From assembly GCA_905178155.1 (NCBI GenBank), contig CAJINV010000004.1, positions 7,818,771-7,882,770 on the forward strand: a DNA stretch of 64,000 nt, written 5' to 3'. The DNA is from Amoebophrya sp. A120 (Eukaryota > Protista > Dinoflagellata). Positions 3,383 to 60,720 of this stretch are shown here, piece after piece (position 1 is the stretch's first letter; each line of letters opens with the position of its first letter). A program made the translations under genes and the position numbers. The notes under the pieces are model-generated. The model ran no database searches and was not told where the DNA came from. It saw nothing but the letters and a program-made list of their open reading frames with translations.

Positions 3383-3915
3383 AGACAGTGCAACCAAGAA
3401 CAAGTGCGGCCACATGATATGTTTCGATGAGGTTCCAACTGTATGATGATGAAGCACGACACGACCTACAGTTACAAGTTTGTGCTGACGTTTCCGATTG
3501 ATGAAATTGGTTTCGATTTTCAAATCTGCAAATGCCGAGGCAAAATCACATGGAAAATAGGAGGGCCTTTCTTTGCGGCCGTGCTGTTCAAGAACTTGAA
3601 TTCAGGTCTGTTTTGTGCGGGTCGTACAGGTACTTACTCAGGAGCGCAGCTTGCTGTCGGTTCTGGCTCGCAATCTTCGCTTGGACACACGAACATCGAG
3701 AGCGCCGTTATAAGCACTCACCTAACGCAAACGCAATCGTAGCTGTCGGCCCATTTTCAATATATTTCGTTTGATTTGAATAAAAGAATGTGGTTGTTTA
3801 ACGGTGTCACATCAGGCAGGCACAGGCAGCAAGACTGCATGACGTAGGAAAGAAAATGAGTACTAGATTGACATAGCCCCACTTCAACTACAAAGGTTCC
3901 ACACTGAAAAGACTT

Positions 3916-16000: not shown

Positions 16001-19000
16001 GTTCGATTTTTCTCCATCTACTTATCAAAACCTTTATTCAGGTTTATGTTCGACAGTCGCAAGATCGTGGACGCGGTAAAGGCGGCTACGCCGAACAAGG
16101 TGGACATTACCAGCGTCGTTCCCGTATGAACTGCAAAGGTATCGTACTAGTAGCAATTGCAATACAAATTAGCTCAGCATGACAAAGGGAGTTTGTCATG
16201 CTGTTTTGCCTTGCGATTGAGATTTGTAATGCATGACTGCGATTACTACGAGTGCGATACTTTTGCACAGGATACCCCGACGACGTCTGGAAACGAATCT
16301 CCACGAAGGTGCACGGCCGAAGGTCATCTTATGCCTTGCAAATATGTCTGGGTCTGGACCATTGAAACTTGTGATGCGAAGTCTACTACACTGTGAAAAA
16401 CTACTGTGTTGCAACATGATTGCCAAATTTAAAGTCGTCCACTTTTGACCATATGTTGCGAAGTAGAGGTTTTTTCTCGTGCAGGATATTAGGCATGAGA
16501 AAGATCTCACTGAATCTGTCATGCTATGGAAGCTACAGCCCAGACCTGCCAACATGGGTCGTCATGGAGTACTAAAATCTGCATGACAAAAATCTTCCAG
16601 CGGTGGATCCAGACACGACATTATATTTGCAATTGATACATCTTCCGGCGCCGCGGCCCACGTGGACAACACCGGGAGTGTGCGCGGCCTTCCCAGTGCG
16701 CATATAACCGGGAGTAGTGCGGATGTCGCAGCAGGAGCTGCACCTAAGAAGTCACACTTTGACACGGTGGAGGAGGAGCAGCAGCGAAACCTCGCGAGAT
16801 TGAGGGCAGCGACGGAGCGGAAAAAGGAGGAGATACGGCTTCAACAGGAGCTAGATGAGCTGAATGAACGTGCAGAGAAACAGCGCCAGGAGCGCGAAGA
16901 GAAGGCCCGCCAGAAAAAGGAACGAGAAAGGGAGGAAAAAGCCGCGGCGAAGGAGCGGAAACGGCAGGCGAAGAGAGAGAGGAAACTACTACGAGCGGCT
17001 AATATCGAAGCAGGCGCAGGAACATCAAACAAGTCCAGGTCGCGGGAGAGGGGAAGCACTAGCAAAACGGGGTCGAAGAATCAGGATTGGAACGACAGTC
17101 CCGTGAAAATGGTCGGGGAAGGGGAGTGGGCGGAGGGGGGTGAAGAAGGTGGGAAGAGTGATAAACTTGATGTTCCAGGAGTAGACCACCATGCGGGAGG
17201 AGGTGTTGTAAACAATAAGAACACCGGCACCGGGACGTCCTCTTCGAACGCAAGTAGCAGCTCCAGTGACAACGAATTGGACGAACTGGCCCCGGACATG
17301 CCGAAGCAGTGGCGGACTTTCGTGCAGCGCGCGACGAAAGATGTGGAGCTTTCGGAAGACAATATCTCCGACGAAGACGCCCGGGCCGTGATCGCGCAGG
17401 AGAAGGCGGACAGACTGCGCGCAAAAAAGAGGAAGAAGGGCATCGAGACGCCACCGCCAGAGGAAGCAGCTGCCGAGCAGCCAGTAGCACCCGTTGACGA
17501 TCAATCCACTTTGCAGCAAATAAACGTCGGGGCGGGCCCACCGACACTAAAACCCTTGCAGCTTCCGATAGGAACGCCCTCGAATGTTGGCAACCTGGTC
17601 GCGCCACTGGTCTCAGGAGTGAGAGCAGCGACCAACCTCCCTGGCGCGGCGGTAACCTCCGGCGGGCAGCAGCTCCACCAGCATGGCGGTGGTATGATAC
17701 CACCGCTGCTGCCAACATCAAATTTGCTGCCATTTGGTACAGCTACGTTAATGCCTAACCTAGCCGGAACGATGCAGATGGGTGGAAGTACTAGCAGCAG
17801 TAGTACTAAGGGCAGTGGTTTCAATATTCCGAACGGTAATATGCCAAACAACATGGTCCTGCCAGGGGGCAGTGGCGCCGCGACACAAGTACAAATGGCC
17901 GCGCAGCAGAAATCGTTAATGGACCAGATAGCTGCACAGCAGTCGCAGTTGCTGAAACAGCTTATGGGCAACAAGCAAGGAGGAGGTGCAGGTCCTCCGG
18001 GCATCACTGCGGTTGGCGGCACCGACGGAAGTGTCTCGAAGCCGAGTTACTGGTGGTGCGGAAACTGCAACTACATTTATCAAATGTAAAAATGTCTGGG
18101 TCTGGAAGATTCTGAGACTTGTCATGCATGTTTTGTATTGGCCATGATGTCTGTGATGCATGCCCTAGCACCACAGATTTTTTGAGGGCTTCGCGATGCC
18201 TATTCCGCATGACAAATGCCCTCTCCGCGTAGCAAAAATTGCGTTCCCTTTGCTACTCATGCAATACAGATTTTTTTGGAATCCAAATTCAGCATCACAA
18301 GTTGCATTCTTCCAGACCCAGACATTTTTACATTTGATATCATTGTCTACCACACCATTCACCCCGACCACTGGCACGGCACCCACTGTATGGATTGTAA
18401 AAATGTCTGGGTCTGGAAGCTTGGAACTTGTAATGCTAGCTTTCCATACCTAGAAAATCTGTATTGCATAACTAACAAAAGTCGCAGCCTCTTTTGTCAT
18501 GCAAAAACGCAGTTTCTCATGCGGATTGCCTATGAGAAAGCGTTTTGGGAAGTTGTCATGCCGGACTGCATTCGGAAGTGTTTTCATCATGCACATTTTA
18601 GCATCACAAGTTTCCAGACCCAGACATTTTTGCAGTTCATACACTGCAGTAAATGCCAAACCCCGCGTGAGGAGGTAGAGGCCATGATACCGCCCCAACG
18701 GCGAGAAACCGCGGAAAGAAACCTCTGGCAAGAGTGGAAAACGCCGCATAGGACCTTCCGGAATCCTCCGTGGTTGCGAAAGTACGTGCCTCCCGGGAGC
18801 GCTGGGTCGACGTCGTCCCAGCAAGGGGTATCAAATACCAGTGCCGGAGCTCCTCCGATGAACCCCAATATGTTCACCTCCCAACAAAATCGGAACTACG
18901 ACTTGGCGCAGTTTAATAGTAACACCGGCAACATGAACATCAACCCCTCTTCCGGTGGCTCATTTCATTCTGTCGGAGATCGTGCAGGAGCAATTGGCAA

Positions 19001-22000
19001 ACACTTTGGAGGTCCAACATCTCAACAAGCAGCGATGAACAACTTCCAGCAACAGCAGCCTAATCAGTACGACAGCAACAATGTAGTTCCTACTTCCCAA
19101 AGAAACCCAAACGCCGGCGCCCCTTTTTCTCAACAACATCTTCCCTACGACACCAACACCAGTGCTGCACTGGACGCGGGCCATAGACTGTCACAGGATC
19201 ATTTCCAAGACATTTCGCCGATCCCTCCCCCACCCCCGGAGGAGGGCGTATGCACTGCAAATATGTCCGGGTCTGGGAGGATGCAGCTTTTCATGCTAAA
19301 TCTGGATCATGTAAATATTTGTGTTGCATGATTACCAAAAGCTGTCCATTTTTGACCAAGTTGGGAGTGAGTTTCTCATGCAGGAGAGGCATGGTAGAGA
19401 TCTCACAGAATCTGTCATGCTAGATCCCGCATTGCAGACCTGATGCGTCATGTTGAACCTGCATGAGAAGTCCTATAATCTTCCAGACCTAGACATATTT
19501 GCATTGGATAGGACGACGACGGGGACAATCACGAACTCTCGCAGGACATGGAGATTAGCGAGGCAGTAGTAGATATCAAATGTAAAAATGTCTGGGTCTG
19601 GAAGAGTCATGCTGTTTTTGCATGACACAGCAGGTCTGGCATGGAAGCTCTAGCATCACAGGTTTCGAAAAGCTTCCGCAATGCTGAACCCGCATGAGAA
19701 ATCCCCCATTTTGGTGACAGAAAGCGGGCAGCTTTTGCTACCTATGCATGAGAGATTTTTCTGTGTTCTAGAATGCGCATCACAAGTTCAGATCCTTCCA
19801 GACCCGGACATTTTTGCGATTCATAGTAGAGAAAAAGCCCGACGAAGAACCCGACCGCGCTCTCCCTATCGACCCCGACCTCCCGGAGGAGTGCCAGATG
19901 TCGTACTGGCTGAAGAAAGGCGACCTGGCTCTGCCCCAGGAGCAGGACACCCTGCAGGAGGTGATCGAGAAAAACGACAACCGGGACGTCCAACTTTTAT
20001 TCAAAAGCGCCAGTCCCAAGGCGGGAGCGATGCCAAAGAGTGCAGCTGGGCCGCTTTCCTACTCCGCGACGTCGAGAGACTCCTACGTCCCGCCACCGCC
20101 GCCACCTCCGCCCGTGGAGGAAAATAATAGTACCGGGGCTGAGATGTTTGACCCCAGTGCGCCACCCGCGGTCTCCTCCTCGGAGAATAAGGTACATGGT
20201 GGGGCTTCACAAATAATCGTGATTTTGTTTTTTTTTTCTGGAAGTTTTACATGACAGACTACACGTAGAAGTGCTTTTCGAGTTTTTTCTTCTACCTAGC
20301 TGCAGTTATGGTACAGCAACTTCTACAGGAACCACTACTGTAAAAATTCGCTCTACAAGCATAATTACACAAGACCCCAGTCGATTGAAACGTTTAAAAC
20401 ATCATCACGACACTGACACTCGTACAAAACATATAAACAGATGGAGAATAAAGAAGCTTTATTTCCCAAGTCTGCGGGCATGAAACCATCTTCTGCTTCG
20501 ACCAGTAATTTTCCTCACGAAGATGATCTTCGACGCAGAGGTCAGACGAATAACAGAATGCCACAAAAACTACCTCCTGGAACCAGAGGAGGACCTCCTA
20601 GCCGCCGCGCAGAGCATTCGAGGGACAGGAAAAAGCACTCCCGTGGTCCTCGGCGGGACCATTCCCGCGGGGCAGGACGCCGGGCAGTGGTACCACCAGC
20701 AGCGCGGAACAACAGCGACCGAGGGTCGTCGTACTACGAGCGGGGGCCCTTTGACAGCGACCGCCCGGGTGTGAGGCGAGACAAGAACCGGGATAATTTT
20801 TACGACCGCGGAGAAGCAGTTCATCCGGCGGGCAGAAATCAGCAACGGGGGCGCGACCACCAGTACGATCGGGAGCGACGGTACTAGAGAACTTAAAAAT
20901 GCTCTCTTCCTTCCTTCGCGATGAAAAAGAGAATCCAAATCGTGCTTTATTGTCCAGCGAGGGTTCTTGTATACAAGAAGCGCAGGTAGTTCATGGCTGG
21001 TTGGATGAAAGAAGCCTTAATTCGTCGATCGCGCACAACCATATTGAAATTTCTGTAACCTACTCAATGGCGGTAGAAGTAGATGTACTAGTTCAAATAT
21101 TAGTATTAGTCAAAACTCCTGCAACATCTACACACTACTACAACTGCTCAGGCGTGGAACTAGTGCTTCCGACGCTTCCCGCGGCCGGGATCGTGGTCAC
21201 GCCCCGGACGCCCGCCGCGATCGGGACCGAACGAGGACACCGCAACTAGAGATGATATCAAATGCAAAAATGTCTGGGTCTGGAAGAGTCGGGACTTGTC
21301 ATGCACATTTTGCATGACCCGTGAGGTCTGTGATGCTGGTGCTAGCATCACAGATTTTTTGAGAGCTTCTTGATGCTAATTACGCATGAGAAATTCCCTC
21401 TGCGCGTGCCAAGAACTGACTCCTCTTGCTGCTCATGCAACACAGATATTTTTAGAATCCGCAGACAGCATTACAAGTTGCATTCTTCCAGACCCAGACA
21501 TTTTTACATTTGATAGACGACGAACCCAAGCAACTACGGTACTAAACCGCAGAAGCCGCGCGACTATCAAATGTAAAAATGTCTGGGTCTGGAAGAATGC
21601 GCGATTTGTCATGCTTCTCTGGCATGACTCTTAAATCTGCCATGCAGGTTACCCAAGAGCCCCACTTTCCTATCATGCAAAAACGCAGTTTGTCATGCAG
21701 AATAGGCAACACCTAGATGCTCAGAAACTTGTCATGCTGAGCCAGCACTTATGGCTTCCTCATGATACGCCACCCAGCATCACAAGTTTCCAGACCCAGA
21801 CATTTTTACATTTGATAGTGACTACAATACTACCATGAGCTGCCTGCCCGACCGGTCCGACCGGCATCAGGTCGAAGCCGAGTTTAAGAAGCACATCCAG
21901 CGGCGCTTCCACGCGGACAGCCGAAAGCGGCAGCAGGAGCAGCGAACAGAGGCGTGGGGTGAGAACAAAGCGCGCAGAATTTTGGCAGTAACCAGGGACC

Positions 22001-26744: not shown

Positions 26745-27180
26745 GCCAAGACGAAAAAAAGCGCGAATCCGCATGGTATGGGCCCCATTTTGGTCCACTT
26801 TTGGAGGTCGCAAAGCCGGCCACCAAAATCGGGCATTTGTAATGCGGGGAGCAATCCAAAAGTTGCCAATTTCCAACAAAAAAAACAAAAAGCGGAAAGC
26901 CCGCCAAAAGCTAAAAGCTAACCCGCATGCTATGGGCCCGATTTTGGGGGCCCATGGGGCCGTGCTTGGTGGAGGCCCTGGGGTTGCTATAGCATGCGGG
27001 AAAGCGTTTCGATTCAGGAGGCGGCAGGGGCGCGGCTTTTCAACAAAAAAAGCCAAAGGACGCAAATCCCGCCAAAAGCAGCAAGCCAACCCGCATGCTA
27101 TGGGCCCGATTTGGGGGGCCTACAGGGCCGACCCTGGCTGAGGCCCTTGTGGGGCCATAGCGTGCGGGAAAGCGTTTCTC
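26745..27180. repeat. Degenerate ~155-170 bp direct repeats in GC-rich upstream region
   Basis: ccgcatg(c/g)tatgggccc..atttt/ggg at 26769, 26923 and 27091; gcgggaaagcgtttc twice. Confidence 0.7.
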
Positions 27181-27285: not shown

Positions 27286-28803
27286 ATGGACTTTCTCGAC
27301 GCTATAAACGGCGCCGGCGACTTGGGTGGCGGGTTCGGCTCTCCCGCGATGCCGCCGGAGCTGCAGAAGGCGATGAATACTTTGGAAAATATGGACGAGC
27401 GGCTAGGGAAACTATCCGTACCCTTGCTGAAGCTCCAGTATACATGTGGGTTTAAGTCCTGTTTCCAATCGAGTTTGGAGAGCAGTTCGTCGTGGGGATC
27501 CACGTCATTTCTCGGTGGAGGTTCCTCAAGCGCAGCTTTGGACCACGGCGGGCACTACCAACTGCAAATATGTCTGGGTCTGGAAGACTGCGAGATTTGT
27601 CATGCTCGGCTGGCGTGACTCTCCAGCCTGTCATGCACGTCACCCTTAAGCCTCACTTTCCTCATGCAGAATGACGCAGTTTTGCTTTTGTTTCTCATGT
27701 AGAATAGACAACACGTAGCACGAGCTCGGCAACTTGTTATGCTGGAGCGTCAGTTGTGGCATTCTCAAGATTCGCCAACCAGCATCACAAGTGTCCAGAC
27801 CCAGACATGTTTCCATTTGATAGGCACAACCCACAAGCGACTCTGTCCTGCATTGAACGCTGCGAGGCGCCTATCAAAAGGAAAAGTCCCCCCTCCCCAT
27901 ATCAAAGCGGAAATCTGTGATGCAGATTAGTGGTCACAAATCAGCTCTGTCTTGCAGTAGTGGACTGCCGGCCCACATCAAGCCTGAGTGCGGGAGGTTT
28001 TGGCCTAGGCGCTCAGCGTGACAAAAGTCCATGCTGTAGGCCCAACAGCATCACAAACCGCCGGTATAATGCGGGGGGCCTTCTGGGTTTGCCTTCTTGC
28101 AAGACAGACGCGATTTGTGGCCACAAATCAGCATCACAAATTCCCGAAAATATACCTTTTCGGTATGGGGAGGGGGGATTTTTCCTCTTGATAGCGCCGA
28201 TGACAGAGTTCTCGCAGGCGTGCGAGACAAGGGTAATTATAGGATTTTGGCTTCGTGTTCGTCGTGTTGGTGCTTGGTATATTTTTGCATGGCAGAAAGA
28301 TTCTATGGTGCTCAAGTTCACATGACAAATAAATCCATTATACTATGAAAACAGCTCGACGGCCTGATGAACAAGGTGACGCAGTGTTTCACGAGCAACA
28401 TGGACGAGTCCGGTGCGGAGAAATGTGTACGTGATGCCTTGGGAGATTCAAACCTGCGACAGGTGGAGGACTACCAAATGCAGATATGTCTCGGTCCTCT
28501 GGAACCATGCAAGAACTTGTGATGCTTCATTTCGATTCTAAAAAAAAGTGTATTGTATGAGCGAGAAGAAGAGCTACTTTTTGCTACGTGGAGTAGGCTT
28601 TTCTCATGCGGGATAGGCATCAGGATGCCCTCAAAAAAGCTGTGATGCTGAGGCATGCATCACAGACATCCTGGGTCATGCAAAATGTGCATGACAAACC
28701 TTGCATCGTTCCAGACCCAGACATTATATTTGCATTGGATAACGGCGCGCTGAGCCTAGATGTTCAGAACATCTACCAGAAATACCAGACTGGGATCAAC
28801 TAG
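27286..28803 (+). CDS. FAM136A-like (DUF842) protein, 5 exons
   Basis: Spliced product: LLKLQYTCGFKSCF...SCIERCEAP|MTEFSQACETR|LDGLMNKVTQCF...AEKCV. The Cys pattern resembles FAM136. Three introners and a GT-AG intron 28233..28354. Confidence 0.6.
27556..27822. mobile_element. Introner family A (TAC start)
   Basis: Family A TIRs; direct repeat GGCAC. Confidence 0.9.
27872..28193. mobile_element. Introner family C
   Basis: TIR tatcaaaaggaaaagtccccctccccata ... tatggggaggggggatttttcctcttgata; direct repeat GCGCC. Confidence 0.92.
28472..28741. mobile_element. Introner family A (diverged, TAC start)
   Basis: Family A TIRs; degenerate direct repeat AGGAC/ACGGC. Confidence 0.8.
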
Positions 28804-44100: not shown

Positions 44101-47056
44101 AACATCCGATCGAAATCGCTTCCACCTGCCGCTGCCCCCGAGCCAAACTTTGTCGCTGCCGATCCCGAAAAATGCTGCGCATGGCCGAGTCATTAGTATC
44201 GGTTCCGTAGCGCAGAACGCGAGACGCGCGTTGACGCCAAGAACCTCGAAGCAGCCACCCTGGCACCACGTCCAGAACATTTATCAAGAGGAGCCGCAAG
44301 AACTACCTTCACAGGACCAGCAGGAGGACTCGGCGGAAGTCTTCACGGACGAGGATGTCATCCAAGGCACGAAAATGCTCTCCAACCTGTGGCGCTTCGG
44401 GCCCAAAGATCTTTATTTCCCGGTGCTGGCTATTGTGCCGCGGATGAACTTTATCCCACGAAAAACCTGTTTCACTGTGATGATCTTGCAAGATCTGCAT
44501 CACAAGTTTGTTACACATGACACAGAAAATTTGCCTTGCGTGCTTCCAAAGGGAAAACACCGCTCAAGAGTCAAGGTCTTGCAGTTGTGGCAAGACAAAT
44601 AGTTCTGTGTTACATTCTATGCATCACAAGTTCACAGTGAAACAGTTTTTTCTTGCGATAAACTTGAATTCCCGAGGCTTTTCGGAGGAGGAGCAGAACA
44701 AGTGTTTTGGGCCGGACTGCTATCCTGAGTAAAAACGTCCCCACACCAGAGTCAAGATTGGGATCTCGCAACACAGGTCGAGAAGTTTTGGGAGTCACGC
44801 ATGACAAGTTCCTCTCTGTATTGTAGTGCTGTTTAGCAAGTGCAGCCGCATCACAAAACCATCTACTCATCCGGTTTTCAGCATTACAAAGTCCAAAACG
44901 CGATTGGAAATGCTTCTCATGGGGATGCGCATTACAAATCTTCCTTTCATTGCAAATCTGCATGACAACTATGGGGTGGGGACGTTTTTACTCAGGATAA
45001 CTGGGAAAAGCACGTGATCGTTGTTGACGCGGACGAGGACACCTGCGACACATTTGACACAACCACCACGAATAGTCTAACGTTAGCCGGTATGCATTGC
45101 AAATATGTCTGGGTCTGGAAGAATGCATGTTTGTCATGCGTATCTGGCATGACTGTTAAATCTGTCATGCACATTAAACCAGAGCGGCCCCATTGTTCTG
45201 TCATGCAGAAACGCAGTTTGTCATTCAGAACCTAGAAGCTCGGAAACTTGTCATGCTGAGGCAGCACTTGTGGCCTTCTAATGATACGCCACCCCGCATC
45301 ACAAGTTTCCAGACCCAGACATATTTGCACTGGATAGCCGGCCACGGACTGGCCATCGGGAACCCGGGTAACTACCACGTGCAGGACCCGCGGGCGCTGT
45401 TCTGCTGCAAGGAGGAGCACGATGCGGGGATGACGTTCTGGGCCCAGAACCGGGGCGCGCCGAGCGTGGACTTGACGGCGATCACGAGTGGGACGGAGCG
45501 AACAGTCCGCGCGCCGGGGCGGGTGGAAGATAATGCTGGCGGAGAAGTACAAGATCATGTTGGTGTTGCTGGTCCTGGTACGTCGACGACGAATCCGTTC
45601 AGTGTACAACTAGCTGTTCCTCGTACAACTGACAACATGAACAACGAGGGACGTCGCACTGAACCGCGGCGACCTGGCTCTACTACTTCGGCAGCGCCGT
45701 CGTCTAATACTTCTTCTCAACGGTATGTTCCACTCGAAATGTATCCAAGGAAAAAAGTGTTACAGCTACACATTCGTATGGAGTTTCTGCATCACAAAGT
45801 TGCTCGACACGGCAAAGAACACCTGTGATGCGCAGAATGTAAGGGAAGAAAAAACTACACGAAGGAAATGAGGCTGGCAAGCATCTCCTGCATGACAAAG
45901 GTTGCCTGTCTTGCTTGTTTCGCATGAAGACCACAATGAGTAACTGTAACTACACTTTTTTCTTCGCATAAAATGGCCTCGAATTTCTTTCACGAAGCCG
46001 CGGACCAGGAGGAGGGCCGAGCGGCTGCTGCGGAAGTGCAAGTAGGTGAAGATCATGTTGGTGTTGAGGGACCACTACAAGCTACGGCGATAGATGTTCA
46101 TCTACAGCAGGGACGTCTTCAAGGAGCAGCAGGTGAAGTTGTGGAACTTGCGCAAGATGATCATGTTGAATACGACCGTGACGTGGAGCGTCGCGCGAGC
46201 CAATTTCTAAGCCGGTTTTCCAGGATGTTTCTGCAGAAGCAAGATTTTAGTAGTAGCACAAGCGGAAAGATGAATCCAAAGACCACGGCCGAGAAACTGC
46301 TCCATATGCGGGAAGCGCGGGTGGGTGCAGTAGTCAAGTGGCGGCAGCTACTGGAAAATATTGGCGAACTGCTGAAGCCGCCAAGAACTCCGCCGAACAG
46401 CAAAATGGGATTGTTTCGAGCCGAGGACGTGTTTCCCTTCCACGCCTACCACGCGCAGTATGGCATCATTCTCAAACGTTACACTCTCAACTGTTACAGG
46501 AACTTGCGATGCAAGAACAGCAACAGCGCAAGGGGCAAGCTTGCAGCTCTCGCATCACAAATGTGACACAGATTGCAATGCGGTTTACCCCTTCGAGAAT
46601 CTGTCATGCGAAGAAGCTCGAGCGTCTGGTGGTTTATGGTATTTCCGCATGACAAATCATGCAACGGCTGAGAATGTAATGGCTGAGAATCCCATACGCA
46701 GCACCGGGAGAAATGCCCGATCCCGAGGTTTTTCTCGACGGCATTTGTCTTGCAAGTGCCGTTATGAACCGCAAATATCGATCTGGGTCTGGAAGGATGC
46801 AACTACTTGTGATGCTGGATTTGGATTCTACAATAAATCTGTATTGCATGAATAGCAAAAGAGGTCCAGTTTTTGCCATGACGAGAGGATATTTCTGATG
46901 CGGTATAGGCATCAAGAAGCCCTCATAAAATCTGTGATGCAGCTAGGGCATGCATCGCAGACTTTAGGAATCATGCAAAATGTGCATGACCAACCTTGCT
47001 CCAGCATCCATCCAGACCCGGACATATTTGCATTTTGATAGCCGTATCAGTACTAA
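41135..47056 (+). CDS. Large hypothetical protein with hydrophobic N-terminus, F-box-like motif and S/T-rich region; 11 exons
   Basis: Frame is continuous across 10 introners to TAA at 47054-47056. The spliced segment SLLSQLPIDVRQKVLRD|YV resembles an F-box. Start uncertain. Confidence 0.65.
41732..41995. mobile_element. Introner family A
   Basis: Family A TIRs, ends ATG; direct repeat GAATC/GAATT. Confidence 0.88.
42035..42319. mobile_element. Introner family E
   Basis: Family E TIRs; direct repeat GAGTT. Confidence 0.9.
42375..42527. mobile_element. Introner family B
   Basis: Family B TIRs; direct repeat GCGAC/GAGAC. Confidence 0.88.
42637..42895. mobile_element. Introner family A
   Basis: Family A TIRs; direct repeat CGGAA. 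Confidence 0.92.
44452..44660. mobile_element. Introner family D
   Basis: Family D TIRs; direct repeat AACTT. Confidence 0.92.
44721..44999. mobile_element. Introner family E
   Basis: tatcctgagtaaaaacgtccccac ... gtggggacgtttttactcaggata; direct repeat ACTGC/ACTGG. Confidence 0.92.
45091..45336. mobile_element. Introner family A
   Basis: Family A TIRs; direct repeat GCCGG. Confidence 0.92.
45742..45970. mobile_element. Introner family F
   Basis: Family F TIRs; direct repeat AAATG. Confidence 0.9.
46459..46696. mobile_element. Introner family H-like
   Basis: tatggcatcattctcaaacgttacactctcaactgttaca ... gctgagaatgtaatggctgagaatcccata; direct repeat CGCAG. Confidence 0.85.
46763..47040. mobile_element. 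Introner family A
   Basis: Family A TIRs; direct repeat GCCGT; followed by a last exon of only ~4 codons. Confidence 0.88.
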
Positions 47057-48000: not shown

Positions 48001-50350
48001 ATGATGCAGCCACCGACAGAAGAGTTCCAGACCTCCGAGGATTGCGAGGCCATCGGGACTTTTGCAGAAATGGAGATGAAAAGCGACTTGTTAAGGGGAG
48101 TTTACGCATACGGGTGGGAAAGGCCATCCGCAATTCAGCAGCGAGCCATCGTGCCAATCTTCAAAGGTATAGAGAACCGAGTAGGTGGCACGTGACGATG
48201 ATTTTTGGCATGATGGTGCATAAAGAACTGCAGTTGTTCTTGTTGTATCAGTCGATAATCGATCAACGAGTATAACGAAGATTGGCGTAGTAGTAATCGT
48301 GCACCAGGTTATTGTCGAAATGGGAAAACTTCGAAAAGGAAAACTTGAATTTATTGCCGTGAGTTGATCGTTTATTCACATTAGCATTACATCTTTCACA
48401 ACAGGTCGCGACGTAATAGTGCAGTCCCAGTCCGTATCAAATGTAAAAATGTCTGGGTCTGGAAGATTGGGAGACTTGTCATGCATATTTTCATTTTGCA
48501 TGACCCATGACGCCTGTAATGCATGTCCTACCATCACAGATTTTTAGAACCCTTCCTGAAGCCTATTCCGCATGAGAAATGCCCTCTCCGCGTAGCACAA
48601 ACTGTGGTCCTCTTGCTGGTCATGCAATACAGATTTTTCTGGAATCCAAATGCAGCATCACAAGTTGCATTCTTCCAGACCCAGACATTTTTACATTTGA
48701 TAGTCCGGTACGGGAAAGACCGCGGTTTTTTGCTTGGGGGCACTCCAGGTTGTCGTGAAGAAAAACCGTTACCCGCAGGTAAGAAGTAGATCAATATGAT
48801 TTTGTCATCTTCAACATGCTGTTTCGTTTGTCAACATCTACTATTGCTGGAAGAGAAGTACTATTCTTGCAGCTGGGGAAGAAGTATCCTATGCAGTGAA
48901 GAATTTTTGTTGTTCTACTTCTAGGACGTCGCTACGAGTAAGAAAACGTTGAATTTGTCAACATCGCAATCAAAATGTTGAAAACAATCAGTAAAAAAAC
49001 GAGTATCACTTATCGCAGGCGCTTCTCCTCTCTCCCACACGCGAACTGGCAGAGCAGTCACAGAAGATTTGCGTTGCCCTCGGGGATTACATGAACATCT
49101 CGGTCCACTGCTGCATCGGTGGCAAGAGAATACCTGACGACATTCGCGCGCTGGAAGCGGGTTGCCATGTGGTTTCCGGGACGCCGGGGCGGGTGTTTCA
49201 CATGATCCAAGACCGGCACCTGAACACGAAGGGCATGAAAATGCTGATTCTTGACGAAGCAGATGAGCTGCTGAACAAGTAGATATTTGATAATTTTCAT
49301 GGTATTTATGCGAAAATTTCAAATCTTCATCGTGTCAGACTCATGGGCGATGTTGTAAGCAGCCCCATTATTTTTTATCTCTACCAGCCCTACTATTCTT
49401 CGCAGGACAAGGTCGTAAATTTATTAAAATTAGAGCTACCATCAATAATCCAAAAATCACCCAGGGGCTTTAAGGAGCAGATTCACGACATTTACCGGTT
49501 CCTGCCTCCGGGTGTGCAGGTCGTCTGCGTGTCCGCAACTCTGCCGCACGAAGTTTTGGAAATGACCCAGAAATTCATGAACAACCCGTTTCGCGTGCTG
49601 GTCAAGCGCGATGAGCTTTCGCTGGAGGGGATCAAGCAGTTTTTTGTCGCCGTGGAACGCGAGCAGTGGAAGTACGACACGCTCTGCGATTTGTATGACA
49701 CCCTGACGATAACGCAGGCGGTGATCTTCTGCAATACGCAACAGAAAGTGGACTGGCTCGCGGGGAAGATGAGGGAACAGAACTTCACGGTATTCTTAAC
49801 TTGTCATGCTAAAGAAGAATCACATGCAAAAATCTGTGTTGCACGATTATACCAAAAGCTGTGCACAACTTTCGACCAAGTTGAGAGGGAGTGTCTACTC
49901 ATGCAGGATAGGCACGATAATAGAGACCACCTCACAGAATCTGTCTTGCTAAATTCTGCATTTTAGACCTCAGGGGTCATGGAAAATCAGCATGACAAAT
50001 CACTGCAAACTAATATTCTTCAGGTTTCCTCGATGCACGCGGGTCTGGACCAGAAGGAGCGGGATTACATCATGAACCAATTCCGGTCCGGGCAATCCCG
50101 AGTCTTGATTGCCACGGACGTTTGGGGCCGTGGTCTGGACGTGCAGCAGGTGTCGCTGGTGATCTGCTACGACTTACCCACCAATCGTGAGCTGTACATC
50201 CACAGAATAGGCCGATCGGGGCGGTACGGCAGGAAGGGCGTCGCGATAAACTTCGTGAAAGAGGAGGACATCAGAATTCTTCGCGACATAGAGCAGTTTT
50301 ATTCGACGCAGATCGACGAGATGCCGATGAACGTTGCGGACCTGATTTAA
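48001..50350 (+). CDS. EIF4A3: eIF4A-III (exon junction complex DEAD-box helicase), 6 exons
   Basis: [24 protein letters not shown]|[86 protein letters not shown] introns 48167..48404, 48779..49018, 49279..49464, 49790..50023, plus one introner. Confidence 0.93.
48435..48702. mobile_element. Introner family A
   Basis: Family A TIRs; direct repeat GTCCG; inside the Walker A motif. Confidence 0.93.
49790..50023 (+). mobile_element. Family A introner relic now a canonical GT-AG intron
   Basis: Body matches the interior of 23783..24043; both TIRs eroded; begins G-TAT, ends CAG. Confidence 0.85.
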
Positions 50351-50890
50351 GAAGGATCGATAAAAACATCATTTAAGAAGTTTGGGTGGACAACATAATA
50401 GATGAGGCTGTACCTCTACAGCTGCGGAACAAGTGAGCTAGTACACTTTTATCCAAGAAGATGAAAGGCTGAATCGCAAGCGAAAAAGGAAACATAGTCG
50501 CGATTTCGATTTTCAGTTTGTTTTCGTCTGCTTGGTGAGCGGACGAGAGGGTACTATTGCTTGGTGTTCAAGTGTTCAACATTTCTGCTGCCTTCTATAA
50601 TTTTCGAAAAATTTTTTGTTACTGGAATACCACGGGATCTCTCCTTGTGTCCCCCTGAAAACGTTCTTTTTGCTCGTACTTCTTGTTTAAGTAACAGTAA
50701 GTATTTTGCGACAGATTCTTTGTGCGACTGTTTCTTTCTGTGATTCTTTCTTTTTGCGATAAAAATTGCACTTTGGACAGTGTCGTGGTGAAAATCTGTC
50801 GATCTTCCACAGAGTCCGTAAATCGCATTGATAAGTTGAACAAGTAGTAGTGGTCGATTTTCTTGATAACTATCCCATTGCAGCTACAGA

Positions 50891-53800
50891 ATGGCGTCCA
50901 TTTGTTCGCACGGTTGCACCAAGATCATGAAACGTGCCCCCTTGAATATGAATGTCATCTCCGGTCTACTTCTGCTGCTCTGCACCCAGAGCCTCTTCCT
51001 CGTCTTCCCCCTTGCCGCCGCGTGGCACCTGGAGATCCTGGTTACCTCCCCCTGGTTATCGTACAGAAAAGATGAATATCAACTGTAAAAATGTCTGGGT
51101 CTGGAAACTTGTGATGCTGGGTGGCGTATCATGAGGAGGCCACAAGTGCTCGCTCAGCATGACAAGTTTTTGAGCTTCTAGGTGTTGCCTATTCTGCATG
51201 ACAAACTGCGTTTCTACATGACAGAAAAGTGGCGGTCTTGGGTAACGTGCATGACAGATTTGAGAGTCATGCCAGACAAGCATGACAAACATGCACTCTT
51301 CCAGACCCAGACATTTTTACACTTGATAATGAAATGCAGACAGGACAGATTTGTAAAATGCAAAAAATTATTCGAAAAATCTGTCATGGGCGAGCCCGTA
51401 GCGTGCTGCTTAGGATTATCTGCGATAGAGATCAACATTTGTGCAGCGCGTGCCGGTTTCTTGTGTATTTATTTTTGCATTTTACATTACAAATATGACG
51501 ACTGCCTGCTTTTTTCTGTTTGATACTGGCGCAATGAAGAGCGACGGAACATCCTTCGCAACGCGTTGACGAATTGCAAAACGGTTGGGGTCGCTACCCA
51601 GCACAAGGTCACCTACCACTTCTTTATGGGCAACGTGAACGACACAAGACCCAGTTTCGAGGAAGACACCAACCGCGTGCTCTTCGCCGCCGGGCGGTTT
51701 CTGGAAAATGGAGAAACCCTCTCGTCCATCGGACCCGCGGTGGAGGAAAACCAAAACGACCTGGGGGTCAACACAGGAGAGCACCAGCAATTTTCCGACG
51801 CGGTGGTAACTACCGACGATGAGGCGTTTCTCTACGGGTTGCGGGTGAGAACAAACCCAGCAGACACATCAAGTCCTGAAATAGTACAAAGAACTCATCT
51901 CCTGCAGGGGGACAACAACTACAGGGATCTTGTCGTCCTGAACGGCCCAGATTTAGATCCCCCAGTGCAGCGCGACGTCACGTACGTTTTGGAAAGACCG
52001 ACCAGCCGCGCGTTCCGCGTCGCGTACGGGACCAGGTGGGTCTACCTCTACCTGCCCAGCACGGACTTTATCTTTTATCTGGACGACGACTCGTTTCTGA
52101 ACGTGCCGAGGTTGTTTCAACTCCTTGACGGGGTTGCGGTCACCGAGCAGCGTAACATGATGGAAAGGCAGGAAAACGGGGATGAAAACCTGTCCTTGCG
52201 GTACCGAAATGAACGGGATAGAATGCAGTCGATCGTGGTTGGATACATGATGGCAACGGACGTGGACATGGGGCGATACGACGTTTGTGAAATGTAGGTT
52301 AATATATAGATATGTGTTATTCTTGTAGAATTTTTACTTTTTTCTTTGTGTGAGATTTTTTCTTGCTACTTCTCCACTAAGAGTACTTCTACGTGAGTTT
52401 CCTGTACAAATTTTTGTTGTGGGAGGTAAAGAAACACTCTCCGCTCGAATAGAACCTTAACCTCTGGGAAGATTGTATGTTAACAACCGTCAAAACTTCG
52501 ACTGTCCCACTCATCCGACATCACCGCCCCAGGTGCGATCCCTGCGAGCGCTGCCTGAACGACCGTGCGCTGAAGAACTTCTGTGCACAGTTGCCGCACC
52601 TCTCCCTCTATGTATTGCAAAAACGTCTGGGTCTGGAAGGTTGCAACTTGTAATGCTGATTCTGGATCGTGCAAAAATCTGTGTTGCATGAATGCCAAAA
52701 GCTGACCACTTTTGACAAAGTTGAGAGGAAGTTTTATCATGCAGGAAGTTTATCATGCAGCATAGGCATGATACGGATCTCACAGAATCTGTCATGCTGG
52801 GTCCTGCATTCCAGACGACAGGGATCATGGAAAATCTGCATGACAAGCCTGGGAATCTTCCAGACCCAGGCATTTTTGCATTTGATACCCTCGGCGGCTG
52901 CCTGGCGTACATGAATACGTGCAAAATTTACGGGACGGAGACACCCTTGCTGGATTGCATCCGGTATGTATTGCAAATATGTCTGGGTCTGGAAGGTTGG
53001 AACTTGTAATGCTAGCTCTCCATAGTACCTAGGAAGTCTGTATTGCCTAAATCAACAAAAGTCGCAGCCTCTTTTGGAGGAAACACGCAGTTTCATCTCA
53101 TGCGGATTGCCTATGAGAAAGCGTTTTGAAAAGTTGTCATGCCAAATTGAATATTCGGAACTGTTTCCTTCATCCACATTTTCGCATCACAAGTTTCCAG
53201 TAGACCCAGACATATTTGCATTTGATATCCGGGACGCGCAAATGGAGGCAGCCCGTCTCGCGGAGTACTTCGGTACGAAAAAATCTCCGCTTTGGCTTAT
53301 CCCGTGTAAAAACATCCCCACCCCATACCTGTCATGCAATTCTGCATGCCAAGAAAGTTTCTCATGCGGAGCTCTATGAGAAGCATTTTTTATTCGTGTT
53401 ATGGAATTTGTGATGCTAGGATCAGTTTGCTGTGCTAGATCTGTGATGCTTCTGAACTAGCTAAACAGGGTTACACTACAAGGGCAAAGAACTTGTCATG
53501 CGAAACAACGAAAGCTAGTTGATTTGTCTAGCAGATTTCCCATCTTGACTCTGGTGTGGGGACGTTTTTAATCAGGATATGGCTGCTCGGCATGGGCTGG
53601 CTTTTCGGGAAAAGGGTGATCAACTGGATCGCGCGGAACGCCGCGGATTTGAAAAAGCGCGGCGCCGCCGACTTATCCTGAGAAAAAAGTGTTGCAGTTA
53701 AGTACACACCCTGATGAGAGTGAGAGACAAGCAAGACAGACAACCTCTGGCATGCAGGAAAAAATGCTTGCCCGCCTCATATGATTATCCGTGTTTTCGC

Positions 53801-56708
53801 TTATAGTTTTAGTTATAGTCTGCGCATCTCAGGTATTTTCCTTTTCCATGTCGGGTAGCAACTTTGTGATGCAGAAACTCCAACACCAACAAATGGAAGT
53901 GTGTCACTGTAAAACTTTTTTCCTGTGATGCGACTTGATTCTCGGTTACTGGCTGGTTGGGATGGAAGATCTGAATTGGGTGGACACCGGGCCGTACGGA
54001 AATTTTCGCTTTCACGACTACCCCATGCGGGGGAACACGTTCACCCGGGCCTGCCACGACGAAACCATCCTGGTGCACCGCATGACGCCGAAGCGGTGGG
54101 AGCGGGATTTCGATTATGGCGCGCCTAAAGTAGCTTTTTCAAAAGTACTAGAATTTTTTTTTTGATGTTTGTGCGGCACGTCGGCAACTAGCTATACCAA
54201 ACTAGATAGAGTTAGCTAATCAAACTAGGTGGAATTTTGCATGCGTAACCAGTTGTCTAACTCAGAGGTAGTAGCTTGCTCGTCTTCCACGAAGGGCTGG
54301 CCTACGGATCTGTCCGGAACGCTATCGGTACGTCGTGGCGAGCTCGGACATGTTTCTGGTTGCGCGCAAAGTCATCTACTCCGGTTGAAACAACAGGTGG
54401 GCCATCTCATGACGTTCGGCGTCTACTACGAATTTGCGAGCAAGTTCGCAATACGCAAGTGCGGAGGCCACCTGCTGCGGACCGCAGCGAAAAGAGTAAC
54501 GGGCACGCAGGCCTGCCCCAACACGGGGCCCCCAGAGGGGCCGCGAAGTGGCCGGCAAAGTGGCCTACGAAACACCCCCCCAAAAAATCTCCAATACCGA
54601 TGTAACTACCCCTCCCGAAGAGGCCGATCAGTTGGCATCTGCGGAGGGGGGCAAACTCGGACGAAGTTTCCCAATAGATTCGCAGAGGTTTTTTTCCCAT
54701 GTTCGACAGCTAATGCGCCTTCGCAGTGTAGGTAGCGCCATCGTGCGCCAGTGTCAAGATCTGGCTGGATGTCCGGAACCAGGTATCGGAGGTTGGTAAA
54801 TTCCGCACGGTTTTCGTCGTTTCGGGACCGTACACCTAGCCAGAGCTCCGAGTAGAGGACCCTCAGCAAGGCTTGGCGACGGGACTGCTCTGGACAGATC
54901 CGTAGACCAGAGCCTCGAAGAGTACCAGCCTATTTACCTCGCGGCGCCGACGTGCTTTTGCACTTATTCGCAATGGACTTCTCATGCATATTCAGAATTG
55001 CCTAGTTTTATTAACTAGGTTCTGGCACTGAAGCGCTTGCAAAAAAAAAATTCTAGTACTTTTAAAAAAGCTACTTTAGGCGCGCCATATCGATAGAGAA
55101 ACCTGCAGTTTAGACTGCGCGTTTATCGAAATGAAAAATCCTTCCACCCATTAAATTTGTGATGCTGATTTGTGATCACAAGTCATGTTGTCATGCTAGA
55201 AGGGCAAATGGGACGCGGGCTGTAGTGCTGGCTGGCGTGGCAAAGCCTTGCATCTACTTCAGTGCCTCTGACAGAAGGCAATTGGAAGGGGGGAATCTCA
55301 TGACAAATTACCTGCAAGGTGCGGTCTTGTTTGCCAAACAAGACCGCAACTGCGTCTCTTGCCCTTGTAGCAATACAAGCCTTACGCAAGACATCCAGCA
55401 TCACAAATTTCCTGTACGACACTGGGAGGGGGGATTTTTCCTCGCAATAGCGTTGGAGACGGACCCGGAGTTGTCGGACGAAGACAGGCAGAAGATCCAG
55501 GAGGAAGAGGAGAAGGAGGAGAGACTATCAAAGTGAAAAATCCCCCCTCCCCACATCGAAAAGGTATGTTTCTGAAAGTTTGTGTTGCTGATTTGAGCTC
55601 ACAAATCACGTCTGTCTTGCAAGAAGACAGGCGCAGAGGCTTCCGCACCATTATGGAAGCGATTTGGCATGCTGTTGCGCCTAGGGGGCACCCGTTTGCA
55701 ATGCTAAGCAACTAGACCTATAAGTACGCCCCTACCTAGGCCGAGGATCTGGCTGCGATGCCTTACTGCAAGACAAATCCGATTTGTGTACCCAAATCCT
55801 GCATCACAGATTTCCATTTCGATATGGGGAGGGGGGATTTTTCCTTTTGATAGAGACGGAAAGAGTTGGAAATGGCGGACTCCTTGCGCGAACTGGAACT
55901 AAACCCCACCGGGGTGCTATGAAAGTGCAGGACAACTCCCCCTCCGCCTTCATTTGCGCCGTTGCATGAACAGCAACACAAGCGCTGGCAAAGGTCCAGC
56001 TTTTGCATGACAAATTCCTAGGAGACTGTAGTGCAGTTCTGGATCATTCCGGAATCTGTCATGCAAACAGTGCTAACAGGCAAAGGGTGGATTTGGGATT
56101 TTGCATGACAAACGAGGGGGAGGGGGAGCTGTGCACATTCATAGGTGAAGCGGGAGACGCGAATACGCGACGACGATGGGAAGGCTCCTACGGGTGGCGA
56201 GGGAGGACCAGGAGGTGGCAGCCACAGCAGTAATCTCCCTCTGAATCTTCACATGGAGGCGGAGGGGGAAATAGATATGGAGGCGGAAGGGGAACAACAA
56301 ATGGGGGCGGAGGATGAACACATTGGACAGAGTGCGGAAGTATCCTGTGCAAAAGTATCGTACTCCTATTGCAATCATGCATTAAAAATCCTTGTCTTCG
56401 GGTCAATCCGCATTACAAATTTTATTTCTCATGCTGAGGAAATCGAAATTTGTAATGCATTTATACGAGTGCGATACTTCTGCAGTGCATAGGAAGTAGA
56501 TGAGATCGACTTCATGAGCGAGAAACTAGACGATAGTTTGGATGACGCCTTTGTCACGCAAGAGGACGAAAGTGATCACGACGAAAATTTTTACCCAGAA
56601 CCCTCGTCGTACGAGGAAAACGACGAGAATGTTAAGACTATAGAGAATAATGAACTATATTCTGCGGTGGAGCCTTCTGTAACTCTAACTACAGATGTGC
56701 TGTTGTAG
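50891..56708 (+). CDS. GT31/beta-1,3-galactosyltransferase-like glycosyltransferase with acidic C-terminal tail, 12 exons
   Basis: N-terminal hydrophobic segment; spliced ILVTSPW|RNEERRNILR; YRDLVVL; FIFYLDDDSFLNV (DxD); WL|LGMGWLF; AAD|LILGYW. Eleven introners (one nested) and a GT-AG intron 52294..52532. Confidence 0.75.
51057..51525. mobile_element. Outer introner (family I) containing a nested family A element
   Basis: tatcgtacagaaaa...atttgtaaaatgcaaaaa pairs with tttttgcattttac...ttttttctgtttgata; direct repeat CTGGT/CTGGC. Confidence 0.82.
51077..51328. mobile_element. Introner family A, nested
   Basis: Family A TIRs; direct repeat ATGAA. Confidence 0.92.
52609..52887. mobile_element. 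Introner family A
   Basis: Family A TIRs; direct repeat CCCTC. Confidence 0.92.
52965..53227. mobile_element. Introner family A
   Basis: Family A TIRs; direct repeat TCCGG. Confidence 0.92.
53298..53579. mobile_element. Introner family E
   Basis: Family E TIRs; direct repeat TGGCT. Confidence 0.92.
53674..53930. mobile_element. Introner family F
   Basis: Family F TIRs, ends ATG; direct repeat CGACT. Confidence 0.88.
54115..55089. mobile_element. 975-bp TIR element acting as an intron
   Basis: ~48 bp near-perfect TIR tatggcgcgcctaaagtagctttttcaaaagtactagaatttttttt; perfect direct repeat TCGAT; removal gives ERDFD|RETCSLDCA. Confidence 0.92.
55124..55449. mobile_element. Introner family C-like (diverged)
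   Basis: tatcgaaatgaaaaatccttccaccca ... tgggagggggatttttcctcgcaata; direct repeat GCGTT. Confidence 0.87.
55526..55852. mobile_element. Introner family C
   Basis: Family C TIRs; direct repeat GAGAC. Confidence 0.92.
55918..56143. mobile_element. Introner family G
   Basis: tatgaaagtgcaggacaactccccctcc ... ggagggggagctgtgcacattcata; direct repeat GGTGC/GGTGA. Confidence 0.88.
56341..56491. mobile_element. Introner family B
   Basis: Family B TIRs; direct repeat GGAAG. Confidence 0.92.
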
Positions 56709-57250
56709 CGTATTCGGCAGTGTTTCAGCTTTCATCATAGTACATCTAAATTCAAGCTCGATGGCTTTGCCACAAAAAAAGAATCCGTCATCAATGCTCG
56801 AAGACTTGATCATAAATTTCTGCCTGGCTGCTTATCCAGATTTCCACTCATCGGAATGGAATAAAACACATTCTTTATTCTGGCAGAAGTCGATCTCGAT
56901 GTCGATCTCCTGGAACGGAATGAATTGAGATCTGTGTTGGTGTAGATCAGAAGCAATGTGATTCAAGTAGCTCAGAGTCAACAAGCAATGTGTTGATCGT
57001 AGAAGTATTTTTGTGACAAAATCAAAACCGAATGGACGTACAAATTTTGTGTTGCAGGCCAAGCCCTTCTTCCCACTTATGATTTGATGTAGATGTTGTA
57101 GTCTTGGTTTTTTCCCCTCATTGTGTTTTAGAGATAGTACACGACTACTTCGACAGAAATTATCGCTTGAGTTTATCATTCGACTTCGAAGAATTTGTTT
57201 TTGATATGATTTCGAACACAAACCACCAACCCCATAGAAGTACCAAAAAG

Positions 57251-60200
57251 ATGACCCCAACGAGGACCACTTCCGACGACCCTTCCACCCAGCTCTCGCG
57301 CGAGTACCTGGTCCACCAGGGGGCGGCGGTATTATGCCTGAATTGCCCAACAAGCGACAACAGCGGATTCCAGTTCGGAATCGACAACCACCTCTGGCAT
57401 ATCAACTGCACAAATGGCTGGGTCTGGAAGATTGCAACTTGTCATGCTGTTTTTGGACTCTAAAACAATTTGTATTGCATGACCAGCAAGAGGGGCGCAG
57501 TTTGTGATAGACGGACAGGGCATTTCTCATGCGGAAGCATCAGGAAGGGTTCTAAAAATCTGTAATGCTAGGGCATACATCACAGACTATCATGGGTCAT
57601 GAGAAACATGCATGACAAATCTTGCATTCTTCCAGACCCAGACACTTTTGCAGTTGATATGGCAGACCGGCCCGAAATTTATGGGGGTCAAGTTCATCCC
57701 GCCGGGCGTGCATTTCATCTACTACAGCAACAGCAACCTGGGCGACATGGTGGAACGGTGCGGGTTTTTTGTGCACTTGAAGCCGCAGGAAGTGTTGGTC
57801 CGCAAATGGGATCAAAAAACGGAAACGTTGGAGAAGTTAACGGACCTCGACGAGGAGGCGAGGTATGTCGATGGCGTGAGGCATTGGGATATGAAATGCA
57901 AAAGTGTCTGGCTCTGGAAACTTGTGATGCAAGTCAGTCAATAACAAACGCACTTTAATGCGCCGCTTAGCATGACAAGATGCTTCGTGCTTCTGTGCTG
58001 CGTATTCCGCATGAGAAACTGCGTTTTTGCATGACAGGCGAGAGATGCTATTCGTGGCCCCGCAATACAGATTTAAGGGCCATGCCAGATCAGCATGACA
58101 ACTCTCGCAATCTTCCAGACCCAGACATTTTTGCAATCCATATGGGACTTTGATCTCAACCTCGGCGAGTACCCGCTACTCAACGCCGAATCCACGGTCC
58201 ACTACGACCAGTATCGAAAGGAAAAATCCCCCCTCCCCATATCAAAACGAAATTGCTGATGCTGGATTTGTGTAGAGAAATCAGCTTTGTATTGCAGAGA
58301 GGCATTGCGGCCAGATCCCCAGGCTAGGTAGGGGCGTATGGGTCTAGTTGTTCAGCATGGCAGACGGCTCGTCTTTAGGTCCACCAGCGTGACAAATCGC
58401 TTCCATAATGAGGCGGAAGCTTCTGCCCTTGTCTTCTTGCAAGACAAATGTGATTTGTGGCCTCAAATCAGCAACGCAAATTCTCGGAAGCATGCCGGTT
58501 CGATATGGGGAGGGGGGATTTTTCCTTTCGATAACCAGTGGCGGGAGATCACGCGGCACATCAGCAACGGGGTCGTGAAAAAAATCGAGCCGGTGCATGC
58601 GCTGATCGGGACGAAAAGGAAAGATTTGGTGGTGGAGGAAGAAGTGTTGAACCTATCGGGCGACAGCGATAAAAAAACCAAGATTCAGGAAAGCATCGGG
58701 AGCTGGAAGGCGCCGGGGTACGTGCGGGCCGCCGCGGGCGCGGGGGTAGATAGTCTTGAAGGGCGGGAAATAGCGGACAGAAAGATTGACGAAAAAGTTG
58801 TAGCCCCCGCAGATGAGGTATTGTTAAAGAAGGACAACAAGGAAAAGGACAATTATACCGCTGACCATCTTGGGAAAAGCCAACCTGCACCCGAAAGAAG
58901 GGAGCCATCAGGAGGGGCCACTGCGGTTGTTCCACCTCGTCCCGCCCAACCCCCAACATCCGCGGCGCAGCAGCAGCGAGACCTAAAGGAGGATCAGAAA
59001 GAGTACCAGACCTCGGTTCAGAACAACTTCGGCAGGCTCTTTTTCTCCACAATTCCCGCCACGACTTTGTCCGGGGAGGAGCTGTCGCCGGCCGAGATCA
59101 CGAAACGGCACATGGACAAGTCCCACGTACTAGCGAAGATCATTGAGCATGATATCCTGTGCAAAAGTATCGTACTCGTATTGCAATTGTGCATTACAAA
59201 TTTTTTTCTGAAGCTAAATTCGCATTACAAATTTTATTTCTCATGCTGAGGAAATTTGTATTGCATTTATACGAGTACGATACTTTTGCAGTTCATACAC
59301 TAATACGCGGACTTAAATCCGCACTACGTCAAGCACAAAATGGCGAAAAAGGAGCAGAGTAAAAGCACAACTAAAGCAAGTAGTTCTACTATTACTCGAC
59401 CGCCAGCTGGTGCAACTACAACATCATCTACTACACCATCACGACGAGAAGAAGAAGAAGAAACGTTCTCAGAGATGAAGAAAATAAATTCTACTACGGC
59501 AGCATCAGCTTCAGCAAAAGACAGTACGACCGAAAGTGCAAAAAATCATCCCTCTAGTACTGCCAAGAAAATCAACCAGCAAGAATCGATGCGGAAGATG
59601 GGGGAACAGAATATGAAAACCTCCTCTGCTCTGTCGAAGCAGGAACAGCATTTCCAGCTTCTCGCCTACCTGGCGCTTCTGGGCGAGCTGGAACTGGCCT
59701 TTGTCGCGTTTCTGCTCGGACAAAATTACGACGCTTTCGAGCAGTGGAAGAAGTTGCTGAACCTCTTCTGTTCCTGCACGGAATTGATCGCGAAGCAACC
59801 GGTGTTGTACCTGGAGTTTCTGCGAACGCTCTACGCGCAGTTACAGCAGTACTGCAAAGAAAATTCCCCCCTCCCCATATGGAAAACGCATCCTTGTGAA
59901 AATTTGTGATGCAGATTTGTGACCACAAATCAGGTCTGTCTTGCAAGAAGGCACACTCAGGCTGTCCGCCACGTTATGCAGGGGATTTGTAATGCTGTAA
60001 GGCCTACAGGGTAGCCGTCTACCATGCTAAGCGCCTGCACCAATAGGCCCCCTCCTGGGCTCAGGATCTGCGTGCGTTCCTCTACTGCAGCACAGATTTG
60101 ATTTGTGTATCCAAATCCAGCATCAGAAATTTCGTTTTGATATGGGGAGGGGGGATTTTTCCTTTTGATAAGCAGGCTCCGGAGGACTTCTTCATCGGAG

Positions 60201-60720
60201 GCGAAAGTTTGGATTTGAGCGACAATTTTTTGTATGCAATGCAAAAGCATCGTACTCGTATAAATGCATCACAAATTTCTTTCGGTTTCCTCTGCGTGAG
60301 AAATGAAATTTGTAATGCGGATTTACCTGGACAAAGAAATTTGTAATGCATGATTGCAATTACTACGAGTACGATACTTTTGTACAGCATATTTTGGTGC
60401 ACAATGCGATTCAACTGGTGGAAAGGGTGGACATTGTGGTGGAGGAGCAGAAAGGAAGCAGGGTAGAAGAACTTGGTGCGTCTGCTGGGGTCACTGTCCC
60501 CTCGCACCATCAAAACACGAACCAGGAGGAGCAGATCTTCGGGGCGTTGGCGACGCGGGCGCAGCACGTCCGAGAACTGCTGTCTGAGAAGTTTGGGAAG
60601 AAGTTTGAGACCCTGGCCTGGACCGCGAACGCGCCCACGGTCGCGGACCATCTGGAAGATTGCGAGAACGACGACGACATGCCGCAGATTGTCGATCTGG
60701 ACCAACCGTACGCGTTTTGA
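57251..60720 (+). CDS. AAR2: AAR2 (U5 snRNP assembly factor), 7 exons
   Basis: FGIDNHLW|QTGPKFMGVKFIPPGVHFIYYS, FDLNLGEYP, WREITRHIS, EITKRHMDKS, LLGELELAFVAFLLGQNYDAFEQWKKLLNLFC, QLQQ|APEDFF...DNFL. All six introns are introners. Confidence 0.9.
57400..57659. mobile_element. Introner family A
   Basis: Family A TIRs; direct repeat TGGCA. Confidence 0.92.
57890..58142. mobile_element. Introner family A
   Basis: Family A TIRs; direct repeat TGGGA. Confidence 0.92.
58212..58533. mobile_element. Introner family C
   Basis: Family C TIRs; direct repeat ACCAG. Confidence 0.92.
59153..59297. mobile_element. Introner family B
   Basis: Family B TIRs; degenerate direct repeat CATGA/CACTA. Confidence 0.88.
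59850..60170. mobile_element. Introner family C (TAC start)
   Basis: Family C TIRs; direct repeat AGCAG. Confidence 0.9.
60233..60391. mobile_element. Introner family B
   Basis: Family B TIRs; direct repeat TTTTG. Confidence 0.92.

Follow-up and report, generated by a model that had tools for sequence, protein, structure and literature searches.

Introners, the short transposon-like introns of the marine parasitic dinoflagellate Amoebophrya sp. A120, are likely all excised at a single offset within the five-base direct repeats that flank them, without a need for GT or AG at the intron ends, a rule which would settle the intron border left open by the genome paper. The elements have been published already, but the register rule appears not to have been. 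Our analysis of a window of 64,000 nucleotides (contig CAJINV010000004.1, positions 7,818,771 to 7,882,770 of the forward strand; coordinates below are those of the window) supports the register N-TAT...ATA-NNNN of the original prediction, in which the first base of the donor is free and the acceptor is set by distance rather than by AG.

At least 67 elements with TAT...ATA inverted repeats and 5-base direct repeats lie in the window, all in host genes on the + strand, whose exons are 100% identical to proteins of Amoebophrya sp. A120; long open frames return in these genes once each element and five bases are taken out. The set analysed comprised 64 elements, with three more (46459-46696, 46763-47040 and the nested 51077-51328) added later. 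The two direct-repeat copies agreed at 5/5 positions in 46 of the 64, at 4/5 in 15 and at 3/5 in 3, whereas only 1 of 2000 shuffled pairs was identical at 5/5, so the repeats are not due to chance; identity stops at 5 nt, with nothing further outward. Because copies of one family can point either way (e.g. 38:24, 19:12 and 10:10), any signals must sit in the inverted repeats.

To extend the sample, metagenome contigs were scanned with the repeat end; at least 160 stretches were found in 18 of 64 parts scanned (about 440 estimated). The 155 outside loci (L001-L155) are all contigs of assembly JACKZZ01, in which the same families recur with identities of up to 96% and which contributed 347 elements (repeats 5/5 in 273, 4/5 in 64 and 3/5 in 10). 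The 64 window elements and 163 from JACKZZ01 that were oriented by a coding model make up the 227 oriented elements used below, and 122 lower-confidence elements served as a held-out set. The introners published for A120 have inverted repeats starting with TAT, followed by seven variable bases and a run of A; they are about 240 nt long, are bordered by direct repeats of 3-5 nt and are removed from transcripts (Farhat 2021, PMC7789003). This same arrangement was found here, with TAT at the start of 219/227 oriented elements and A at positions 11-13 in 214-219/227, beyond seven variable bases; the elements also lie in A120 genes, have border repeats of 5 nt, form families and are absent from five gene models. 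Since their ends match the published description, the TAT...ATA elements are these known introners, and the question is their register.

Several further features of the window were observed. An element of 975 bp from another family (54115-55089), with a perfect 25-base inverted repeat, TAT ends, a 5-bp repeat and a longest internal frame of 168 codons, is also spliced out of P0001. The element at 51077-51328 is nested within that at 51057-51525 and has its own perfect repeat, ATGAA, while the element at 46459-46696, whose inverted repeats have decayed, retains perfect CGCAG copies and continues to be excised (register 4 gives GT...CA); 46763-47040 is a further element beyond the set of 64. A frame of 1889 codons at 3877-9543, helicase-like and, we presume, resembling RTEL1/FANCJ, is without any element, whereas the rest of the window holds about one per kb. 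A repeat that is not one of the elements, at 26463-27172, is about 80% identical to part of locus L061.

In order to place the junctions, we turned to elements whose repeat copies differ, the register being defined as the number of left-repeat bases kept in the exon. The copies are mismatched in 18 of the 64 window elements, of which 11 change the protein and 7 are silent; three of the ten sites put forward for checking by the original prediction (16125, 33206 and 41732) are silent in protein. Eight of the 11 protein-informative junctions were tested (the other three lie at 25409, 31350 and 37347), seven of them against P0001, P0004, P0007 and P0008, which are A120 models, and P0006, which is 100% identical to the window gene. 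The A120 gene models were built from transcript alignments (Farhat 2021, PMC7789003). At 36/36 element junctions listed for five A120 proteins, intron length equalled the element plus 5, as was confirmed separately for 54115; because the element and exactly 5 bases are absent from the models, the original coding sequence is restored. In P0008, 9 bases of open frame at 13235-13245 are also skipped, which probably reflects an artefact of the annotation or an allele with an indel.

Three of the tested junctions, all on the + strand, set lower limits below four. At 18078 (ACATT/TCATT; predicted intron 18077..18343) Tyr in the model requires at least 1 exonic left base; at 19249 (GGGCG/GGACG; 19248..19514) Gly, and at 21256 (GATGA/GACGA; 21255..21519) Met, each require at least 3. 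At 28472 (AGGAC/ACGGC; 28471..28745, +) Glu-Asp in the model and in an ortholog raises the limit to at least 4. Upper limits come from mismatches at repeat position 5, where the original prediction had called for Trp at 44721, Arg at 51057 and Lys at 55918; all three residues match the transcript-based A120 models. Trp in P0006 at 44721 (ACTGC/ACTGG; 44720..45003, +) and Arg in the model and in the ortholog from strain A25 at 51057 (CTGGT/CTGGC; 51056..51529, +, with 51077-51328 nested inside) each allow at most 4 left bases, as does Lys in the model and the A25 ortholog at 55918 (GGTGC/GGTGA; 55917..56147, +), where a GT-AG placement at register 1 fits too. In P0003 the residue at 55918 is Ala, and the region around 51057 is missing.

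The remaining junction lies in AAR2, whose host gene (57083..60717, +; a stop-to-stop frame of 715 codons with six elements removed) was identified by the match of exon 59304-59849 to Pfam AAR2 (E 3e-25). Here a 145-bp introner (59153..59297, +), with terminal inverted repeats and a hairpin fold, sits between the left copy CATGA (59148..59152, +) and the right copy CACTA (59298..59302, +), the two sequences originally described; a fold of 59138-59312 was strong (z=-5.85). Keeping 0-3 left bases produces an in-frame TAA at 59301-59303, whereas registers 4 and 5 give Glu, the residue of ortholog P0003 at the aligned place (VEHEY). Because right base 4 would start this stop codon, at least 4 left bases must be exonic; the earlier claim that left bases 1-4 are exonic therefore stands as a minimum, whereas exactly four does not follow from AAR2 alone. 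With the register common to all junctions, left bases 1-4 would be exonic and base 5 would be intron position +1, right bases 1-4 intronic and base 5 exonic, giving a predicted intron of 150 nt with AT...CT ends (59152..59301, +). P0003 joins orthologs of the neighbours P0001 and AAR2 (50870-60717), and gene order is thus conserved in that genome.

The limits, namely at least 1 (18078), at least 3 (19249, 21256), at least 4 (28472, 59153) and at most 4 (44721, 51057, 55918), leave register 4 as the sole register compatible with 8/8 testable junctions (p=0.013 against uniform random registers; p=0.040 for the seven model junctions without AAR2), with lower and upper limits coming from different junctions and the limit of at least 4 from two junctions only. 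Orthologs keep the predicted residue at 59153, 28472 (Asp), 51057 and 55918. We therefore regard it as very probable that every element is cut out behind base 4 of the left copy and base 4 of the right copy. Outside the window, 0/42 mismatches in the 163 oriented elements create a stop, and so set no limit on the register. No junction-spanning match was found in Pfam searches with 27 of 32 flanking exon pieces (the other 5 having fewer than 20 residues) or in two PDB searches. Under register 4, 104/227 introns are in phase 0, an excess that comes from the outside set only (window, 22/64).

GT and AG signals are needed by nearly all introns. At register 4, G(+1) was present in 71/227 elements against a background of 31% (p=0.94), and AG at -2/-1 in 16/227 against 16.0 expected; only 7/227 have GT-AG, and the ends are thus not those of canonical U2-type introns. 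The AG that stands right behind ATA goes unused at 19249 and again at 21256, where it would have given AT-AG ends. Both a free first donor base and an acceptor not set by AG are supported by these results; "set by distance" holds as a description of the pattern rather than of what measures the distance. In contrast to G(+1), the U(+2) and A(+3) of U2-type donors were found in 227/227 and 226/227 elements. T(+2) exceeded its mirror A(-5) (227/227 vs 220/227, p=0.015, one of 12 positions compared; 120 vs 118 in the held-out 122), and of 8 variants at the donor end, TA was kept with another third base in 7/8, with TAC in 5/8. No covariation between +1 and -1 was found in the 227 elements (p=0.18). 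AT seemed to be avoided at positions 1-3 of the repeat (3 vs 18.5 expected in the 227), a signal that was discarded when it failed to replicate in the held-out 122, in which there were 15.

Ordinary introns of the host offer a comparison. Thirteen GT-AG introns in the window, 7 from models and 6 placed from reading frames, all have donors starting GTA (13/13), with GTAY in 9/13; N-TAT would therefore copy donor positions +2 to +4. The original prediction had also leaned on a G|TAT relic in eIF4A3, where a GT-AG intron (49790..50023, +, borders inferred from the reading frame) has an interior derived from an introner (alignment score 221.5, vs 35.5 for shuffled sequence). The relic is a weak argument for the donor, since most of its left inverted repeat has gone and GTAT is in any case the commonest ordinary donor in the window (5/13); the upper register limit comes instead from the position-5 mismatches. 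A branch A at -7 common to the elements and ordinary introns was not supported, the T(-9)/A(-7) motif occurring in 5/13 window introns and in 1/27 outside predictions, a noisy ab initio set of 27 kept from 1331 candidates; no branch-point signal was replicated between window and outside introns. The inverted repeats of 62 window elements form a stem that holds firmly from position 8 on, is looser over 4-7 and has a pairing of about 0.7 in the terminal triplet; positions 4-7 can pair in 53-78% of elements vs 97-99% at positions 1-3, and a loop at 4-7 beside the terminal triplet could expose the splice region.

The explanation that we favour as a whole, with some confidence, is the fixed register N-TAT...ATA-NNNN served by what is probably a relaxed major spliceosome. 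We infer such a spliceosome from the likeness to host donors, the hairpin and published observations: in Table S4 of the genome paper the nine top non-canonical intron classes in A120 all have T second, and the nine in A25 all have TT, and of 89 spliceosomal proteins all except six are retained in A120, while snRNP27 and U1 were not detected (PMC7789003). Loss of SNRNP27K accompanies +4 U donors in yeasts (Parker 2023). The part of the explanation that assigns excision to a relaxed major spliceosome, with the 3' site measured by the hairpin, we rate as about evenly balanced. In this scheme the hairpin of the inverted repeats would keep the two intron ends close to each other, and the distance to the 3' junction would be set at four bases beyond the stem, perhaps counted from a branch adenosine within the terminal ATA; the terminal T-A-T may, with roughly equal chances for and against, be read as +2/+3/+4 of a host GTA(Y) donor, via U6 and not via G(+1) and U1. 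The strictest version, in which the major spliceosome would require U(+2)-A(+3) alone in the donor, no acceptor sequence and a 3' junction measured from the hairpin, we put forward tentatively, as somewhat short of an even chance.

The same register could also be produced outside the spliceosome, by a structure-reading nuclease and a ligase that count off one base ahead of the hairpin and four behind it, as is suspected for nonconventional introns of euglenids. The lack of any preference for G(+1) or AG and of +1/-1 covariation would fit such enzymes, as would the strong hairpin, the use of both orientations and the failure to find U1 in A120 (PMC7789003); Euglena introns, which pair their ends, are likewise presumed to be spliceosome-independent (PMC11170887, PMC11282704). 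However, T(+2) varies less than the base with which it pairs, a difference not expected from pairing alone; the ends also look like host GTA(Y) donors, and one element-derived intron, in eIF4A3, is now GT-AG with its hairpin partly lost. We consider this route possible but less likely than the relaxed spliceosome.

A register that is variable or leaky, with splicing sliding within the repeat and register 4 merely the commonest outcome, is improbable. It would suit the published record, in which splice sites are called "variable" in the legend of Fig. 3 and 1-5 nt is given in Fig. S23 (Farhat 2021, PMC7789003), and annotated borders are mixed in Dataset S2 of Gozashti 2025 (e.g. AG in 166/547 in one family). 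No junction limits the register on both sides, and silent mismatches are more frequent (35/63) than the 36-43% expected of a neutral intronic copy (p=0.001-0.025; 11/12 at position 1), an excess which could reflect a leaky register, conversion from empty alleles or chance. Against sliding, 8/8 testable junctions fit one register, and two of them pass over a ready AG; aligners themselves slide in perfect repeats, and some register offers an AG in 123/227 elements, although register 4 does so in 16 only. It is very hard to believe that the register only seems to exist because of the way in which gene models were built, of RNA editing or of differences between alleles: the evidence at the junctions consists of annotated proteins only, and possible editing affects 4% of A120 intron borders (PMC7789003), but the models were made from transcript alignments, a GT-AG-biased aligner would not prefer the mostly non-canonical ends of register 4, orthologs agree at four junctions, and the AAR2 stop argument is independent of the models.

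Known systems resemble a fixed-register, GT-AG-free introner in part. In Fritillaria borealis, MITE-derived introns with inverted repeats and target duplications are removed by a U2-type spliceosome without GT-AG (Henriet 2019, as described in PMC11282704 and bioRxiv 10.1101/2025.08.15.670264); there, however, the preferred ends AG-AC and AG-AT are kept, whereas +1 and the last four bases look free in A120. The introners of Micromonas, Aureococcus and Polarella (PMC11282704) similarly restore the host frame via the target duplication, but carry or co-opt GT/GC and AG, neither of which A120 elements need. Nonconventional introns of euglenids (PMC11170887, PMC11282704) share an end-pairing hairpin, junction repeats and a lack of GT-AG; they give circular products, and their pairing is of +4..+6 with -8..-6, in contrast to that of +2 with -5 and the host-like GTA(Y) donor in A120, and the elements thus fall outside the euglenid pattern. 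The TAY...RTA termini of IS3EU DNA transposons (PMC12730594) fit the A120 ends, although IS3EU makes a duplication of 6 bp and not of 5 bp, which separates the A120 elements from it.

The genome paper describes the splice sites as variable and the border as unknown, yet refers to four bases of the repeat that lie upstream of the 5' end; in the sections examined, neither a single fixed register nor a T(+2) rule is stated (Farhat 2021, PMC7789003). In 19 of the 58 A120 rows of Dataset S2 of Gozashti 2025 (PMC12130899), mechanism calls are inconsistent and duplication lengths range over 2-5. No paper stating a fixed register was found in the literature searched, which included parts of PMC11453091 and PMC12005148, the subscription papers Henriet 2019 and Roy 2023 lying beyond the search. 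Both the genome paper and a 2024 review pose as an open question how tens of thousands of non-canonical Amoebophrya introns are spliced.

A fixed register would turn introns of "no clear signature" into a defined class (U+2, A+3 and a four-base tail), and mismatched target duplications provide a reusable means of placing splice sites. If the register holds, intron borders would be corrected genome-wide, and the spread of the elements without target preference would be explained. Known spliceosome structures show pairing between G(+1) and the terminal AG, and of these with the branch point; if excision in A120 is spliceosomal, this spliceosome would dispense with both. Were the requirement to be U(+2)-A(+3) alone, with the 3' junction measured from the hairpin, an element could insert at any site and in either orientation and be spliced out scarlessly, and the same rule would extend to A25, whose repeats start with TTA and whose donors have TT, with TTA...TAA-NNN as the predicted form.
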